NCBI RefSeq assembly: GCF_022846255.1
Contig: NZ_AP025682.1
Length of the DNA: 64,000 nt
Reading direction: 5' to 3' (one strand)
DNA from: Escherichia coli
GTDB taxonomy: Bacteria; Pseudomonadota; Gammaproteobacteria; Enterobacterales; Enterobacteriaceae
Positions 1,864-9,556 of the stretch are shown here, one piece after another (positions within the stretch are counted from its first letter, which is position 1; each line of letters opens with the position of its first letter). The translations under genes and the position numbers were made by a program. The notes under the pieces are model-generated. The model saw only the letters and a list, made by a program, of their open reading frames with translations. It had not been told where the DNA came from and did not search any database.

Positions 1864-2772
1864 ATGAATACAGATACGTTTATGTGCAGCAGCGACGAAA
1901 AGCAGACCCGTAGCCCACTGTCGCTGTATTCAGAATACCAGCGGATGGAAATTGAGTTTCGCGCACCGCATATCATGCCCACCAGCCACTGGCATGGTCA
2001 GGTCGAAGTGAATGTGCCTTTCGATGGCGATGTGGAATACCTGATCAACAATGAAAAAGTGAATATCAATCAGGGTCATATCACGCTGTTCTGGGCCTGT
2101 ACACCGCACCAACTAACAGATACCGGAACCTGTCAGAGCATGGCGATTTTTAATCTGCCGATGCATCTGTTTCTCTCCTGGCCGCTGGATAAAGACCTGA
2201 TTAACCACGTTACTCACGGCATGGTGATCAAATCACTGGCGACACAGCAACTTAGCCCGTTTGAAGTGCGCCGCTGGCAGCAGGAATTAAACAGTCCGAA
2301 CGAGCAAATTCGCCAGCTCGCCATTGATGAAATTGGCCTGATGCTCAAGCGATTTAGCCTCTCTGGCTGGGAACCGATTCTGGTCAATAAAACCTCGCGC
2401 ACACACAAAAACAGCGTCTCGCGCCATGCGCAATTTTATGTCAGCCAGATGCTGGGCTTTATTGCCGAAAACTATGATCAGGCGCTGACCATCAACGATG
2501 TGGCTGAGCACGTCAAACTTAACGCCAACTATGCAATGGGGATATTCCAGCGGGTCATGCAATTGACGATGAAACAGTACATAACCGCGATGCGCATCAA
2601 CCACGTTCGCGCGTTACTGAGCGATACCGATAAAAGTATTCTCGATATTGCCCTGACGGCAGGCTTTCGTTCGAGTAGCCGTTTTTACAGCACGTTCGGC
2701 AAATATGTCGACATGTCGCCGCAACAATACCGCAAACTTAGCCAACAGCGCCGCCAGACGTTTCCCGGCTAA
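1864..2772 (+). CDS. melR: AraC-family melibiose operon activator
   Basis: ORF track 302 aa; C-terminal AraC-type HTH region; position divergent from melA. Confidence 0.9.
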   Translation: MNTDTFMCSSDEKQTRSPLSLYSEYQRMEIEFRAPHIMPTSHWHGQVEVNVPFDGDVEYLINNEKVNINQGHITLFWACTPHQLTDTGTCQSMAIFNLPMHLFLSWPLDKDLINHVTHGMVIKSLATQQLSPFEVRRWQQELNSPNEQIRQLAIDEIGLMLKRFSLSGWEPILVNKTSRTHKNSVSRHAQFYVSQMLGFIAENYDQALTINDVAEHVKLNANYAMGIFQRVMQLTMKQYITAMRINHVRALLSDTDKSILDIALTAGFRSSSRFYSTFGKYVDMSPQQYRKLSQQRRQTFPG

Positions 2773-2967
2773 AGACGATATCAGTATCAGCCAAAAAAAT
2801 AGTTTAGCCGTCGATAATAAGCAGTGAAAATAATTTAAAATAATCACATAACGTGTTGTTTATAAAAATAAATATTTCAAAAATGTTTGTTTTTCACGCG
2901 CTTTACAGCCCGAAAAGGCCGGAAGATACTTGCCCGCAACGAAGATTCCTTCATAACCGGGTAAGCA

Positions 2968-5238
2968 ATGATGAAAGTATTAATTGTTGAAAGCGAGTTT
3001 CTCCATCAAGACACCTGGGTCGGTAACGCCGTTGAGCGTCTGGCAGATGCTTTAAGCCAGCAAAATGTTACCGTGATTAAATCCACCTCCTTTGATGATG
3101 GTTTTGCCATTCTCTCTTCAAACGAAGCCATTGACTGCCTGATGTTCAGCTATCAAATGGAACATCCGGACGAACATCAAAACGTCAGACAATTGATCGG
3201 TAAGCTTCATGAGCGCCAACAAAACGTGCCGGTCTTCCTGTTGGGCGATCGGGAAAAAGCCCTCGCCGCAATGGACCGGGATCTGCTGGAGCTTGTCGAT
3301 GAATTCGCCTGGATTCTGGAAGATACTGCCGACTTTATCGCCGGACGCGCCGTTGCCGCGATGACCCGCTACCGCCAGCAGCTGTTGCCGCCACTGTTCA
3401 GCGCGCTGATGAAATATAGCGACATCCATGAATATTCCTGGGCAGCGCCAGGCCACCAGGGCGGCGTTGGTTTTACTAAAACACCCGCCGGACGTTTCTA
3501 CCATGACTACTATGGTGAAAATCTGTTCCGCACCGACATGGGCATCGAACGCACTTCCCTCGGTTCTTTGCTTGACCATACTGGCGCATTTGGCGAAAGC
3601 GAAAAATATGCCGCACGCGTATTTGGTGCCGATCGCTCCTGGTCGGTAGTCGTCGGTACTTCCGGCTCTAACCGCACCATCATGCAGGCTTGCATGACCG
3701 ATAACGATGTCGTGGTCGTTGACCGTAACTGCCATAAATCCATCGAACAAGGCTTGATGCTGACAGGCGCGAAACCGGTCTACATGGTGCCAAGCCGCAA
3801 CCGCTACGGCATTATCGGGCCAATCTATCCGCAGGAAATGCAACCTGAAACCTTGCAGAAGAAAATCAGTGAAAGCCCGCTGACCAAAGACAAAGCCGGG
3901 CAAAAACCGTCTTACTGCGTGGTGACCAACTGCACCTATGACGGCGTGTGTTATAACGCTAGAGAAGCACAGGATCTGCTGGAAAAAACCTCCGATCGTC
4001 TGCACTTTGACGAAGCCTGGTACGGCTATGCACGTTTCAACCCGATCTATGCCGATCACTATGCCATGCGCGGCGAACCTGGCGATCACAACGGTCCTAC
4101 CGTTTTCGCCACCCACTCCACCCACAAACTGCTGAATGCGCTGTCCCAGGCCTCTTATATTCATGTACGTGAAGGTCGTGGGGCGATTAACTTCTCCCGC
4201 TTCAACCAGGCCTACATGATGCATGCCACCACCTCCCCGCTGTATGCCATCTGCGCATCCAACGACGTGGCGGTGTCGATGATGGACGGCAACAGCGGCC
4301 TGTCACTGACCCAGGAAGTGATCGACGAAGCGGTTGATTTCCGTCAGGCGATGGCGCGGCTATATAAAGAGTTCACCGCTGACGGTAGCTGGTTCTTCAA
4401 ACCGTGGAACAAAGAAGTCGTCACCGACCCACAAACCGGCAAAACCTATGACTTTGCTGACGCACCAACCAAACTGCTGACCACCGTTCAGGACTGCTGG
4501 GTCATGCATCCGGGCGAAAGCTGGCACGGCTTCAAAGATATTCCGGATAACTGGAGTATGCTCGACCCAATTAAAGTCAGCATCCTTGCTCCGGGAATGG
4601 GTGAAGATGGTGAACTGGAAGAAACCGGTGTTCCGGCGGCGCTGGTCACTGCCTGGCTTGGTCGCCACGGCATTGTGCCTACCCGCACCACTGACTTCCA
4701 AATTATGTTCCTGTTCTCTATGGGCGTAACCCGTGGGAAATGGGGGACTCTGGTTAACACCCTTTGCTCCTTCAAACGCCACTATGACGCCAACACACCG
4801 CTGGCGCAGGTGATGCCGGAACTTGTTGAACAATATCCTGACACTTACGCGAACATGGGGATTCACGATCTGGGTGACACCATGTTTGCCTGGCTGAAAG
4901 AAAACAACCCTGGCGCACGGTTGAACGAAGCCTATTCCGGCCTGCCGGTGGCGGAAATCACCCCGCGTGAAGCGTACAACGCGATTGTCGACAACAATGT
5001 CGAACTGGTATCCATTGAAAACCTGCCAGGACGCATCGCGGCAAACTCAGTTATCCCGTATCCGCCAGGAATCCCGATGCTGCTGTCTGGTGAAAACTTC
5101 GGCGATAAAAACAGTCCGCAAGTAAGTTATTTACGCTCGCTGCAATCCTGGGACCATCATTTCCCTGGATTTGAACACGAAACAGAAGGGACAGAAATTA
5201 TTGATGGTATTTACCACGTTATGTGTGTGAAAGCGTAA
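2968..5238 (+). CDS. adiA: biodegradative (acid-inducible) arginine decarboxylase
   Basis: ORF track 756 aa; recognised as AdiA (PLP-dependent Orn/Lys/Arg decarboxylase fold); the start may be the second ATG at 2971. Confidence 0.9.
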   Translation: MMKVLIVESEFLHQDTWVGNAVERLADALSQQNVTVIKSTSFDDGFAILSSNEAIDCLMFSYQMEHPDEHQNVRQLIGKLHERQQNVPVFLLGDREKALAAMDRDLLELVDEFAWILEDTADFIAGRAVAAMTRYRQQLLPPLFSALMKYSDIHEYSWAAPGHQGGVGFTKTPAGRFYHDYYGENLFRTDMGIERTSLGSLLDHTGAFGESEKYAARVFGADRSWSVVVGTSGSNRTIMQACMTDNDVVVVDRNCHKSIEQGLMLTGAKPVYMVPSRNRYGIIGPIYPQEMQPETLQKKISESPLTKDKAGQKPSYCVVTNCTYDGVCYNAREAQDLLEKTSDRLHFDEAWYGYARFNPIYADHYAMRGEPGDHNGPTVFATHSTHKLLNALSQASYIHVREGRGAINFSRFNQAYMMHATTSPLYAICASNDVAVSMMDGNSGLSLTQEVIDEAVDFRQAMARLYKEFTADGSWFFKPWNKEVVTDPQTGKTYDFADAPTKLLTTVQDCWVMHPGESWHGFKDIPDNWSMLDPIKVSILAPGMGEDGELEETGVPAALVTAWLGRHGIVPTRTTDFQIMFLFSMGVTRGKWGTLVNTLCSFKRHYDANTPLAQVMPELVEQYPDTYANMGIHDLGDTMFAWLKENNPGARLNEAYSGLPVAEITPREAYNAIVDNNVELVSIENLPGRIAANSVIPYPPGIPMLLSGENFGDKNSPQVSYLRSLQSWDHHFPGFEHETEGTEIIDGIYHVMCVKA

Positions 5239-5355
5239 CCACTATTCCGCTGAAGGCGTAATTGTTAAATAACATTACGCCGCCTGGCTTGAGGCCTTTT
5301 AAGTATGGCAACGTTTTCATAAAAATTGCTGCAAACAAAAAATGTCATGCTTTTT

Positions 5356-5382
5356 GCGCGGTCCCACCCCGCGCTTTTTTTT
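5356..5382 (+). terminator. intrinsic terminator downstream of adiA
   Basis: GC hairpin gcgcgg-tcccacc-ccgcgc followed by a run of 8 T; an A-run upstream gives a bidirectional look. Confidence 0.6.
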
Positions 5383-5573
5383 GCCTGTTATTTATCCTTT
5401 TTTTAGCCTGTAAAAAAATATGTACATGAGAAATTACTATAAAAATTTGTAATATTAGTAAAACTCGTTATTTTTATGCATGTTTATATTCATCATACAA
5501 TTATATAACCATTTCCCGGTATCGCTTTGCTTTAGCGAGAACTGGTCTTTTATTCGCACTCAGGAGTACATGT

Positions 5574-6335
5574 ATGAGGATTTGCAGCGACCAACCTTGT
5601 ATTGTTTTATTGACTGAAAAAGATGTCTGGATAAGGGTGAATGGGAAAGAACCTATTAGCCTTAAAGCTAACCATATGGCGTTATTAAATTGTGAAAATA
5701 ATATTATCGACGTCTCCTCTCTTAATAACACTTTGGTTGCTCATATTAGTCACGACATCATCAAAGATTACCTCCGGTTTCTGAATAAAGATCTCTCGCA
5801 AATACCAGTATGGCAACGTAGCGCTACGCCCATCCTCACCCTGCCATGCCTGACGCCAGACGTCTTTCGCGTTGCCGCGCAACATAGCATGATGCCCGCT
5901 GAAACTGAGTCAGAAAAGGAACGAACACGTGCATTATTATTCACTGTGCTATCCCGTTTTCTCGACAGTAAAAAATTCCTTTCACTAATGATGTATATGT
6001 TACGTAATTGTGTAAGTGACAGCGTTTATCAAATTATTGAAAGCGATATCCACAAAGACTGGAATCTTAGTATGGTAGCCAGTTGTTTATGTCTTAGCCC
6101 AAGTCTGTTAAAGAAAAAGCTGAAAAGCGAAAACACCAGTTATAGCCAAATAATCACCACCTGCCGCATGCGTTATGCCGTAAATGAATTAATGATGGAC
6201 GGTAAAAATATCTCTCAGGTATCACAGTCCTGCGGCTACAACAGTACGTCGTACTTTATTTCTGTCTTTAAAGACTTCTACGGTATGACGCCGCTGCATT
6301 ATGTTAGTCAGCACAGAGAACGCACTGTCGCCTGA
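5574..6335 (+). CDS. adiY: AraC-family regulator of the arginine-dependent acid resistance genes
   Basis: ORF track 253 aa; AraC-type C-terminus; sits between adiA and adiC. Confidence 0.85.
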   Translation: MRICSDQPCIVLLTEKDVWIRVNGKEPISLKANHMALLNCENNIIDVSSLNNTLVAHISHDIIKDYLRFLNKDLSQIPVWQRSATPILTLPCLTPDVFRVAAQHSMMPAETESEKERTRALLFTVLSRFLDSKKFLSLMMYMLRNCVSDSVYQIIESDIHKDWNLSMVASCLCLSPSLLKKKLKSENTSYSQIITTCRMRYAVNELMMDGKNISQVSQSCGYNSTSYFISVFKDFYGMTPLHYVSQHRERTVA

Positions 6336-6471
6336 TTTTTAACCTTAACGAAGAGCTATATTAATAACGGCATCAGCGATAACCCGGCCGATAATAATTC
6401 AACTATCGAATGCAGGCGTATGATATGACGTAATTTATTGTCACGAAGCTCGCCTTCGCAGGAGTTTAATT

Positions 6472-7809
6472 ATGTCTTCGGATGCTGATGCTCACAAAGT
6501 GGGCTTAATCCCCGTCACCCTGATGGTGTCGGGGAATATTATGGGGTCAGGTGTTTTTCTGTTACCTGCAAACCTGGCCTCCACTGGCGGGATTGCCATT
6601 TATGGATGGTTGGTGACGATTATCGGTGCGCTGGGGCTCTCGATGGTATACGCCAAAATGTCGTTCCTCGACCCAAGTCCTGGTGGTTCTTACGCTTACG
6701 CCCGCCGCTGCTTTGGCCCGTTTCTCGGTTATCAAACCAACGTCCTCTACTGGCTGGCCTGCTGGATCGGCAATATCGCCATGGTGGTCATTGGCGTAGG
6801 ATATTTAAGTTACTTCTTCCCGATTCTGAAAGATCCACTGGTATTAACCATTACCTGCGTCGTGGTGCTATGGATCTTCGTCCTGCTGAATATTGTCGGT
6901 CCGAAAATGATCACCCGCGTGCAGGCCGTTGCCACCGTGCTGGCGCTGATCCCCATCGTCGGGATTGCCGTATTTGGCTGGTTCTGGTTCCGTGGTGAAA
7001 CCTATATGGCGGCATGGAACGTCAGCGGCCTGGGCACCTTCGGCGCGATTCAAAGTACCCTTAACGTTACGCTGTGGTCGTTCATCGGTGTGGAAAGTGC
7101 CTCCGTTGCCGCTGGTGTGGTGAAAAACCCGAAACGCAACGTCCCTATCGCCACCATTGGTGGGGTATTGATTGCCGCCGTTTGCTATGTACTCTCCACC
7201 ACCGCGATTATGGGGATGATCCCTAATGCCGCACTGCGCGTTTCTGCCTCGCCATTCGGTGATGCCGCACGGATGGCGTTGGGTGACACCGCCGGGGCCA
7301 TTGTTTCCTTCTGCGCAGCTGCGGGTTGCTTAGGTTCACTGGGCGGCTGGACGTTGCTGGCGGGTCAAACGGCGAAAGCCGCTGCCGATGACGGACTGTT
7401 CCCACCGATTTTTGCCCGTGTAAATAAAGCGGGTACGCCAGTGGCGGGGCTGATTATCGTCGGTATTTTGATGACCATCTTCCAGCTCAGTAGCATTTCG
7501 CCAAACGCGACCAAAGAGTTCGGTCTGGTTTCTTCCGTCTCGGTCATCTTTACACTGGTGCCATATCTTTACACCTGTGCGGCGTTACTGCTGCTCGGCC
7601 ACGGTCACTTTGGTAAAGCACGCCCGGCATATCTGGCAGTTACTACCATTGCCTTCCTCTACTGCATCTGGGCCGTGGTGGGGTCCGGGACGAAAGAGGT
7701 TATGTGGTCATTTGTCACCCTGATGGTCATCACCGCCATGTATGCGCTGAATTACAACCGGCTGCATAAAAACCCGTATCCCTTAGATGCACCAATAAGC
7801 AAAGATTAA
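6472..7809 (+). CDS. adiC: arginine:agmatine antiporter (APC family)
   Basis: ORF track 445 aa; polytopic membrane protein recognised as AdiC. Confidence 0.9.
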
Positions 7810-7834
7810 TTCCCCTTAATCCAGCAAACATAAA

Positions 7835-7872
7835 AGCCAACCTTAAGAACTTAAGGTTGGCTTAATTTTGCT
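7835..7872 (+). terminator. adiC intrinsic terminator (long hairpin plus T-rich tail)
   Basis: Inverted repeat agccaaccttaag / cttaaggttggct followed by taattttgctttg. Confidence 0.6.
7850..7866 (+). promoter_or_regulatory. PmrA (BasR) box-like direct repeat CTTAAG-N5-CTTAAT upstream of eptA
   Basis: cttaag gttgg cttaat about 47 nt upstream of the eptA ATG; matches the PmrA half-site pattern; further CTTAAT/CTTAAG hexamers at 7815 and 7842. Confidence 0.55.
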
Positions 7873-7912
7873 TTGCGAGCATATGCGCACTTTGTTCGAT
7901 GGAAACACCGTG

Positions 7913-9556
7913 ATGTTGAAGCGCCTACTAAAAAGACCCTCTTTGAATTTACTCGCCTGGCTATTGTTAGCCGCTTTTTATATCTCTATCTGCCTGAATA
8001 TTGCCTTTTTTAAACAGGTGTTGCAGGCGCTGCCGCTGGACTCGCTGCATAACGTACTGGTTTTCTTGTCGATGCCGGTCGTCGCCTTCAGCGTGATTAA
8101 TATTGTCCTGACACTAAGCTCTTTCTTGTGGCTTAATCGACCGCTGGCCTGCCTGTTTATTCTGGTTGGCGCGGCTGCACAATATTTCATAATGACTTAC
8201 GGCATCGTCATCGACCGCTCGATGATTGCCAATATTATTGATACCACTCCGGCAGAAAGTTATGCGTTGATGACGCCGCAAATGTTATTAACGCTGGGAT
8301 TCAGCGGCGTGCTTGCTGCGCTGATTGCCTGCTGGATTAAAATCAAACCAGCCACCTCGCGCCTGCGCAGTGTTCTTTTCCGTGGAGCCAATATTCTGGT
8401 TTCTGTACTGCTGATTTTGCTGGTCGCCGCACTGTTTTATAAAGACTACGCCTCGTTGTTTCGCAATAACAAAGAGCTGGTGAAATCCTTAAGCCCCTCT
8501 AACAGCATTGTTGCCAGCTGGTCATGGTACTCCCATCAGCGACTGGCAAATCTGCCGCTGGTGCGAATTGGTGAAGACGCGCACCGCAACCCGTTAATGC
8601 AGAACGAAAAACGTAAAAATTTGACCATCCTGATTGTCGGCGAAACCTCGCGGGCGGAGAACTTCTCCCTCAACGGCTACCCGCGTGAAACTAACCCGCG
8701 GCTGGCAAAAGATAACGTGGTCTATTTTCCTAATACCGCATCTTGCGGCACGGCAACGGCAGTTTCAGTACCGTGCATGTTCTCGGATATGCCGCGTGAG
8801 CACTACAAAGAAGAGCTGGCACAGCACCAGGAAGGCGTGCTGGATATCATTCAGCGAGCGGGCATCAACGTGCTGTGGAATGACAACGATGGCGGCTGTA
8901 AAGGCGTTTGCGATCGCGTACCTCACCAGAACGTCACCGCGCTGAACCTGCCTGGTCAGTGCATCAACGGCGAGTGCTATGATGAAGTACTGTTCCACGG
9001 GCTGGAAGATTACATCAATAACCTGCAGGGTGATGGCGTGATTGTCTTACACACCATCGGCAGCCACGGCCCGACCTATTACAACCGCTATCCGCCGCAG
9101 TTCAGGAAATTTACCCCAACCTGCGACACTAACGAGATCCAGACCTGTACCCAAGAGCAACTGGTGAACACTTACGACAACACGCTGGTTTACGTCGACT
9201 ATATTGTTGATAAAGCGATTAATCTGCTGAAAGAACATCAGGATAAATTTACCACCAGCCTGGTTTATCTTTCTGACCACGGTGAATCGTTAGGTGAAAA
9301 TGGCATCTATCTGCACGGTCTGCCTTATGCCATCGCCCCGGATAGCCAAAAACAGGTGCCGATGCTGCTGTGGCTGTCGGAGGATTATCAAAAACGGTAT
9401 CAGGTTGACCAGAACTGCCTGCAAAAACAGGCGCAAACGCAACACTATTCACAAGACAATTTATTCTCAACCTTATTGGGCCTGACTGGCGTTGAGACGA
9501 AGTATTACCAGGCTGCGGATGATATTCTGCAAACTTGCAGGAGAGTGAGTGAATGA
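7913..9556 (+). CDS. eptA: lipid A phosphoethanolamine transferase
   Basis: ORF track 7868..9556 trimmed to the internal ATG giving 547 aa ([10 protein letters not shown]...); sulfatase-type C-terminal domain; stop overlaps the basR start. Confidence 0.88.

Follow-up and report, generated by a model that had tools for sequence, protein, structure and literature searches.

The 335-nt spacer between adiA and adiY of Escherichia coli is best read as three parts: an ortholog of the Salmonella small RNA AdiZ (5292–5382), a separate upstream stem-loop, hairpin 1 (5255–5281), and the promoter and 5′UTR of adiY (5383–5573). We put the probability of this reading at about three in four. The anatomy is mostly known biology; the AdiZ locus and its Hfq-type terminator were published in December 2025. 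The homology, structural conservation and anatomy described here come from our analysis. RNase E processing, Hfq dependence and targets were established in Salmonella, and we infer the same for E. coli.

The adiA–adiY locus

Positions are those of the window, the whole 64-kb (64,000-nt) stretch of E. coli DNA analysed. It holds the melA/melR–adiA–adiY–adiC region of E. coli, with adiA, adiY and adiC all on the + strand in the list of open reading frames (ORFs).

2968–5238, + strand: adiA coding sequence, arginine decarboxylase, 756 aa, TAA stop at 5236–5238 (ORF list and RefSeq annotation); its mRNA is the parent of the 3′UTR elements
5239–5254, + strand: linker from the stop codon to hairpin 1, with a CTATTCCG core (5242–5249) common to the Citrobacter amalonaticus/sedlakii group (alignments A2 and A3)
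5574–6335, + strand: adiY coding sequence (ORF list, identity confirmed)
6472–7809, + strand: adiC coding sequence (ORF list, identity confirmed)

A 535-nt query spanning the spacer found matches in 5416 of 5426 complete E. coli genomes, every time between annotated adiA and adiY. The allele in the window is that of strains such as NC101, of phylogroup B2. For comparison, 80 adiA loci were taken from reference genomes, and the 3′UTR alignment A2 was built from 25 Escherichia, Citrobacter and Salmonella sequences.

Further along the window, a weak full-length match to the Rfam family STnc630, an enterobacterial sRNA, lies just 3′ of adiC (7842–8011; 24.3 bits, where the gathering threshold is 55; E 0.29). 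It is probably a chance match.

An AdiZ ortholog at the end of the adiA transcript

AdiZ (STnc1180) of Salmonella is a 95-nt sRNA from the adiA 3′UTR, renamed by Kanda et al. (NAR 2025, PMC12746102). According to that paper, it is made from the adiA promoter, cut by RNase E at a U-rich site shortly after the stop codon and stabilised by Hfq, and uses three seeds to repress pykF, ptsG and dmsA; deleting U8 lowered its level. RNase E release, Hfq-dependent stability and induction by acid and anaerobiosis are presented there as shown for Salmonella AdiZ, partly in E. coli hosts. In that work E. coli serves only as a host (a delta-adiZ strain) and AdiZ is described as absent from normoxic interactome studies. 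Homologs form Escherichia-Shigella, Citrobacter and Salmonella clusters, in which the Hfq-binding module, a U-rich sequence plus the intrinsic terminator, is described as near-perfectly conserved.

5292–5382, + strand: AdiZ (STnc1180) ortholog, sRNA body and terminator; the sole match in the window to covariance model R1, 78% identical to Salmonella AdiZ over aligned positions
5296–5300, + strand: C-UUUU segment, presumed RNase E site; lies opposite C-U8, where Salmonella AdiZ begins (A2 and the model R1 alignment), and is unpaired in the fold
5301–5352, + strand: predicted AdiZ stem-loop with arms AAGUAUGGCA (5301–5310) and UGUCAUGCUU (5343–5352), from folds; counterpart of the probed Salmonella stem-loop
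5350–5382, + strand: Hfq-binding-type 3′ module and adiA intrinsic terminator, CUUUUU, a GCGCGG/CCGCGC stem with loop UCCCACC, then U8 (terminator scan and conservation)

Model R1 was built from 15 Citrobacter and Salmonella AdiZ sequences and included no Escherichia. Searched against the whole 64-kb window, it gave a single match, at 5292–5382 on the + strand, covering model positions 1–106, its full length (49.9 bits, E 8.9e-12). The equivalent place was matched in five other Escherichia loci (44–48 bits); scores were lower in Kluyvera and Yokenella (28–38 bits) and weaker still in Hafnia and some unclassified Enterobacteriaceae. In pairwise comparison, 63 of 81 aligned positions are identical between the window sequence and Salmonella AdiZ. 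The location agrees as well: adiA stops at 5238, the element shares the strand of adiA and runs to the end of its terminator, and adiY begins at 5574. We conclude that 5292–5382 is the Escherichia ortholog of Salmonella AdiZ, as recognised by sequence. Rfam 15 has no AdiZ family, and a scan of 2500–8500 at a permissive E-value gave no real match at the adiA–adiY spacer. The ncS54 match from that scan (19 bits, E 0.77) was rejected as chance-level, as it merely tracks the terminator.

The likeness to Salmonella AdiZ goes beyond locus, strand and endpoint. Both have the 3′ module UGUCAUAC, a U-rich stretch, GCGCGG...CCGCGC and U7/8, and the stem-loop predicted here is arranged as in Salmonella; the UUGCUGCAAA(A)CAA segment is kept, and a U-rich segment stands at the aligned 5′ end. 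There are also differences. The 3′UTR is about 107 nt in Salmonella and 144 nt in Escherichia, which carries the 57 nt of 5239–5295, with hairpin 1 and a tentative hairpin 2, where in Salmonella 12 nt separate the stop codon from AdiZ. At the presumed cleavage site Salmonella has U8 and the window U4, and seed 1 reads GAGGAUGGCA in Salmonella and AAGUAUGGCA here.

The predicted E. coli AdiZ, 5297–5382, consists of a 10-bp stem with a 32-nt interior, CUUUUU, the terminator hairpin and U8 (–20.2 kcal/mol, z –1.9). The interior is A/U-rich, with a conserved UUGCUGCAAAC and an Escherichia-specific CGUUUUCAUAAAAA. When the whole 3′UTR is folded, 5296–5300 lies unpaired between hairpin 2 and the AdiZ stem, and by analogy RNase E may process the transcript here in E. 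coli too. The shorter U4, compared with U8 in Salmonella, may count against such processing. No promoter-like site was found on the + strand in a scan of 4900–5900, which fits AdiZ as a processed rather than a primary transcript.

In the core of the AdiZ stem (RNAalifold) only one-sided A-U/G.U changes occur; these keep pairing in the + strand RNA but not in its complement, which speaks for selection on the RNA. The fold of 5286–5385 is no more stable than its shuffles (z –0.67). The one-sidedness and the unremarkable folding energy both count against our main reading.

The stem also varies at single positions. Position 5301, the first base of its 5′ arm, is polymorphic in E. coli (A in the window, G in K-12, T in EC42405). 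The K-12 form UGAGUAUGG is complementary over 9 nt to the ptsG site CCAUACUCA, and the window allele makes one pair fewer. A private G at 5349 in the window gives a U.G pair.

Conservation is uneven along the element. The 3′ module 5343–5382, comprising the 3′ arm of the stem, the U-rich linker, the terminator and the U run, is 84–90% identical to Salmonella and Citrobacter, compared with 60–63% at adiA third codon positions, whereas the body 5297–5342 is only 43–55% identical, against the same 60–63%. Within Escherichia the picture is different: the whole 3′UTR is about 92% identical to that of E. albertii (counted by eye in alignment A6), against 76.5% at third codon positions.

The terminator and its U-rich flanks

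The sequence-only reading had placed a canonical terminator at 5356–5382, and this is borne out: GCGCGG (5356–5361), loop TCCCACC and CCGCGC (5369–5374) are followed by T8 (5375–5382). The hairpin has six G-C pairs and a 7-nt loop (–11.5 kcal/mol), as expected of an intrinsic terminator. The terminator scan alone is not significant, because shuffled sequences give the same number of sites per kb (1 found, 1.0 expected). What distinguishes this site is its conservation, with no variation in stem or T run among the 25 Escherichia, Citrobacter and Salmonella sequences.

The same reading had described the terminator as flanked by A and T runs. The T run is there, but the 5′ flank is CTTTTT (5350–5355), and the A-rich stretch at 5333–5342 lies within the sRNA body, 13 nt 5′ of the terminator stem. 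A bidirectional A-tract/U-tract terminator was ruled out by this flank, by the nearest A run ending 13 nt upstream and by the co-directional genes. CUUUUU, hairpin and U8 follow one another in the same order in all clusters and correspond to the Hfq-binding module as defined by Ishikawa et al. (2012), cited in PMC12746102. By analogy, the terminator, its U-rich 5′ flank and its U8 tail probably also form an Hfq-binding module in E. coli. PMC12746102 calls the adiA mRNA monocistronic and, citing Brenneman 2013, describes the Salmonella adiA terminator as attenuating downstream genes.

Hairpin 1

5255–5281, + strand: hairpin 1, 8-bp stem GGCGUAAU/AUUACGCC plus 3 inner pairs, no U tail; lineage-restricted, upstream of AdiZ
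5282–5295, + strand: tentative hairpin 2, GCCU/AGGC, 4 bp; predicted in folds, with a one-sided U.G change in E. albertii and one broken cell; the evidence is weak

Hairpin 1 starts 17 nt after the stop codon and lies outside and upstream of the match to the AdiZ model. Its arms are GGCGTAAT (5255–5262) and ATTACGCC (5274–5281), and the inner pairs join 5264–5266 to 5271–5273. An 8-nt-stem hairpin lacking a T run had already been noted at 5255–5281 from the sequence, and both its coordinates and the missing T run were confirmed. The RNA folds at –12.1 kcal/mol (z = –2.9), with 2 of 200 shuffles as good. In a sensitive blastn search, 5412 of 5426 E. coli genomes had it, each at a single place and without annotation.

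Within Escherichia all 11 pairs are invariant in 13 sequences, drawn from six species-level lineages and divergent E. coli alleles, while substitutions and an indel are confined to the loop, the bulge and the flanks. As the stems are essentially invariant, covariation within the genus is uninformative. In the Citrobacter amalonaticus/sedlakii group (Citrobacter_A) a hairpin with an unrelated loop occupies the corresponding position, bordered by CTATTCCG and CCTGG, which are conserved. Two pairs are changed on both sides relative to hairpin 1, from G-C to U-A and from A-U to C-G. In this comparison, 90% of cells are paired, compared with 19–59% when the partner is slid by 1–3 columns. These compensatory changes, in two pairs and two clades, are real but thin support for hairpin 1 as an RNA structure.

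In one member of the Citrobacter group, C. amalonaticus (locus L011, 5272–5345), the minimum-energy fold does not form hairpin 1; instead the 5′ arm of its counterpart, GCGUCAUGA, pairs with UUAUGACG, which is the 5′ arm in the AdiZ stem. The RNA of that lineage may thus take up alternative structures, whereas E. coli has no such alternative.

Among the adiA 3′UTRs compared, no comparable hairpin was found in Salmonella, the C. freundii group or several other genera. As Salmonella and the C. freundii group do without it, AdiZ biogenesis does not generally depend on hairpin 1. The idea that adiA 3′UTRs commonly carry a hairpin close to the stop codon was rejected: Yokenella and Kluyvera cryocrescens have one, but Kluyvera genomosp. 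1, Hafnia and Citrobacter NCU1/R56 do not. Hairpin 1 is a lineage-restricted, apparently undescribed conserved structure that separates the stop codon from AdiZ.

Two other identities were tried and rejected. Hairpin 1 is not an intrinsic terminator: it has no U run, being followed by GCCUGGCUUGAGG, and the terminator scan did not call it. Nor is it a REP/BIME-type repeat, with a single place per genome in the 5412 genomes and no REP consensus.

Seeds and targets

PMC12746102 places the Salmonella seeds at G10-A19 (seed 1, pykF), C28-U36 (seed 2, ptsG) and G37-U60 (seed 3, dmsA). The window AdiZ does not carry this full set of three. Seed 1 matches at 8 of 10 positions. The seed 3 region is largely kept, in the UUGCUGCAAAC region and UUGCUGCAAA(A)CAA. 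Seed 2 is not at its aligned position, where the window has CAUAAAAAU and Salmonella CUGAGUAUU (A2). The SgrS-like ptsG seed CCUGAGUAU has become CAUAAAAAU in all Escherichia aligned, through a cluster of substitutions that turns CCUGAGU into CAUAAAA. The same paper states that the ptsG seed of AdiZ is not conserved in Escherichia.

Windowed duplex folding of the window AdiZ with the 5′ regions of E. coli dmsA, ptsG, pykF and adiY (those of dmsA, ptsG and pykF from K-12) gave no pairing better than chance, with 11–30 of 60 dinucleotide shuffles as good. K-12 AdiZ with ptsG was marginal (–17.1 kcal/mol, 6/60 shuffles as good). The only duplex to stand out, at –22.9 kcal/mol with 0/60 shuffles as good, was between Salmonella AdiZ and E. 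coli adiY, a cross-species pair that has no direct biological meaning. One lead is that the Escherichia-specific loop CGUUUUCAU (5312–5320) could pair without mismatch over 9 nt with the start of dmsA, AUGAAAACG. The duplex energy is no better than that of shuffles, and with so A/U-rich a composition the probability of finding such a match among these targets by chance is, by our estimate, about 0.1 or more.

A related system is SgrS, whose core seed is carried by Salmonella and Citrobacter AdiZ and which targets the same ptsG site. It differs in being a primary transcript from a separate locus, and at the aligned position the window AdiZ has no SgrS seed. SgrS has also been reported to target the adiY mRNA of E. 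coli.

An exact complement of the lost CCUGAGU seed, ACUCAGG (5558–5564), is present in the ribosome-binding region of E. coli adiY, where Salmonella has UUCCAGG. It probably marks the SgrS site on adiY, as judged from the SgrS seed. By losing the ptsG seed, Escherichia AdiZ may also escape pairing with its own neighbour adiY, since that seed is complementary to the ribosome-binding region ACUCAGGAG of E. coli adiY and would make it a self-target.

It is conceivable, though we would not favour it, that Escherichia AdiZ has been rewired and not simply inherited, losing the ptsG seed, gaining the dmsA-complementary loop and acquiring a clade-specific hairpin that alters processing or stability of the adiA mRNA.

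The adiY promoter region

5396–5406, + strand: 11-nt segment CCTTTTTTTAG between CCT direct repeats; present in the window and other Escherichia species, deleted in K-12-like E. coli (A1, A4)
5410–5426, no strand assigned: conserved block GTAAAAAAATATGTACA upstream of adiY (A4); the Salmonella form is a 7-2-7 palindrome, GTACAAA-TT-TTTGTAC
5488–5501, + strand: ATTCATCATACAAT, conserved (A4), with TACAAT (5496–5501) as the best –10 candidate of a weak adiY promoter
5558–5576, + strand: adiY translation initiation region, with ACUCAGG (5558–5564), Shine-Dalgarno AGGAG (5562–5566) and ATG at 5574 (sequence and ORF)

The AT-rich stretch seen ahead of adiY in the sequence-only reading is real, with 29% GC over 5383–5573 compared with 53% in adiA. 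Within it, past the AdiZ terminator and ahead of the conserved block GTAAAAAAATATGTACA, lies the segment CCTTTTTTTAG, which supplies a second T run (5398–5404). The 95–99% identity band to which K-12 belongs holds about 70% of complete genomes, and these may share the CCTTTTTTTAG deletion. Together with A7 at 5412–5418, the T run of CCTTTTTTTAG makes a T7/A7 inverted repeat that K-12 lacks.

The GTAAAAAAATATGTACA block is probably a regulator site, and the Salmonella palindrome suggests that the regulator is dimeric. According to PMC12746102, the regulator that acts on adiY under anaerobiosis has yet to be identified. TTGTAAT (5447–5453), GTTATTTTTATGC (5467–5479) and the region around the adiY Shine-Dalgarno are also conserved from Escherichia to Salmonella (A4). 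A hexamer scan scored the –10 candidate at 5/6 and the –35 at only 3/6. Neither the hexamer nor the promoter scan found a good –35. This agrees with the weak reporter expression that a K-12 fragment running from hairpin 1 to the adiY ATG gave on a plasmid (PMC12826058).

The forward primer of the PadiY-lux and PadiY SPR fragments in PMC12826058 is hairpin 1 itself (K-12 locus L001, 1617–1642; window 5255–5279). The published 'adiY promoter' fragments therefore include the entire AdiZ and the adiA terminator. Further downstream, a possible stem in the adiY 5′UTR (5516–5520/5541–5545, CCGGU/ACUGG) shows a two-sided change from G.U to C-G in Escherichia sp. E1V33 and E. whittamii (A4).

We conclude that adiY has a weak promoter region of its own, with conservation that reaches from Escherichia to Salmonella, so that read-through need not determine the adiA:adiY ratio. 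As blocks of 5383–5573 are conserved as far as Salmonella, adiY would be transcribed mainly on its own, with read-through of the terminator at most a minor input. A literature search gave nothing usable on E. coli 3′-end mapping or the adiY transcription start.

Discussion

The picture that best fits these data begins at the acid- and anaerobiosis-induced adiA promoter, from which transcription would halt at the GC-rich hairpin and U8 (5356–5382). By analogy with Salmonella, RNase E would cut the single-stranded C-UUUU at about 5296–5300. This would release a product of about 86 nt, made up of the stem-loop 5301–5352 and the terminator, which would be stabilised by Hfq and base-pair with target mRNAs. 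The adiA mRNA would then be left with hairpins 1 and 2 as a structured 3′ end, where they could slow 3′-to-5′ exonucleases and keep the cleavage segment single-stranded.

Several enterobacterial sRNAs arise in a similar way. CpxQ, SdhX, GlnZ, NarS and MalH are processed by RNase E. Their sequences are unrelated to that of AdiZ. The likeness lies in release from a parental mRNA whose terminator serves as the Hfq module, and in an operon function tied to other pathways (PMC12746102).

The spacer could instead be terminator and nothing more, with the hairpin and U8 ending adiA, partial read-through tuning adiY and the body drifting without function, so that there would be no trans-acting role in E. 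coli. Much of the sequence divergence is what this would predict: the body 5297–5342 is at or under the synonymous-site level of identity to Salmonella and Citrobacter (43–55%), the ptsG seed is lost in Escherichia, and pairing with the known targets is not above shuffles. A literature search found no expression, 5′-end, Hfq-binding or target data for E. coli AdiZ, and the attenuation of downstream genes described for the Salmonella terminator in PMC12746102 would suit a read-through role. However, within Escherichia the 3′UTR is conserved far above synonymous sites (about 92% against 76.5% for E. albertii), all changes in the AdiZ stem keep + strand pairing, the invariant U-rich 5′ flank is needed for Hfq binding and not for termination alone, and adiY has its own conserved promoter region. 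On balance we regard the terminator-only explanation as unlikely and retain that of an AdiZ ortholog.

It is less clear what hairpin 1 does. Our best guess is that it acts as a barrier to 3′ exonucleases or as a structural insulator beside the presumed RNase E site. Stem-loops at the 3′ ends of mRNAs, REP elements among them, are known to act as exonuclease barriers. Hairpin 1 resembles the REP-type stabilising stem-loops in being stable, without a U tail and just 3′ of a coding sequence, but differs in being single-copy and without the REP consensus. The main rival to this role is that hairpin 1 belongs to the sRNA, as the 5′ stem-loop of a longer E. coli AdiZ of about 125–140 nt, cut near the stop codon and protected against 5′-end-dependent RNase E decay. 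Such an isoform would account for the conservation of hairpin 1 only 17 nt past the stop codon and for the short U run (U4) at the Salmonella-equivalent site, and the linker 5239–5254 contains A and U and is predicted to be unpaired. Homology to the mapped Salmonella 5′ end nevertheless begins at about 5296, and no U-rich stretch is more exposed in the fold than 5296–5300; we think the longer isoform improbable. We consider it highly unlikely that hairpin 1 works as DNA, either as a palindromic protein-binding site or as a decayed repeated extragenic palindrome, even though its DNA forms an inverted repeat that is perfect over 8 bp. It occurs at one place per genome, and the lack of other copies means that it is not a REP-type repeat. 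In Citrobacter_A both half-sites have changed and the spacer is of a different length (11–12 versus 13 nt), yet pairing is kept, which fits an RNA stem and not a fixed protein site; C. sedlakii also has one U.G pair, and the opposite strand would have an A.C mismatch there. The interpretation in the sequence-only reading is partly supported: hairpin 1 is not a terminator, and it adjoins the presumed RNase E site.

In the literature searched E. coli AdiZ is uncharacterised, and we recognise it here by its sequence. What this analysis adds is small, the anatomy of E. coli AdiZ and an undescribed hairpin 1, and it leaves the current picture of the adi locus unchanged. For E. coli, the sRNA gains a predicted 5′ end, a stem-loop, and a division of its seeds into those that have diverged and those that are retained.
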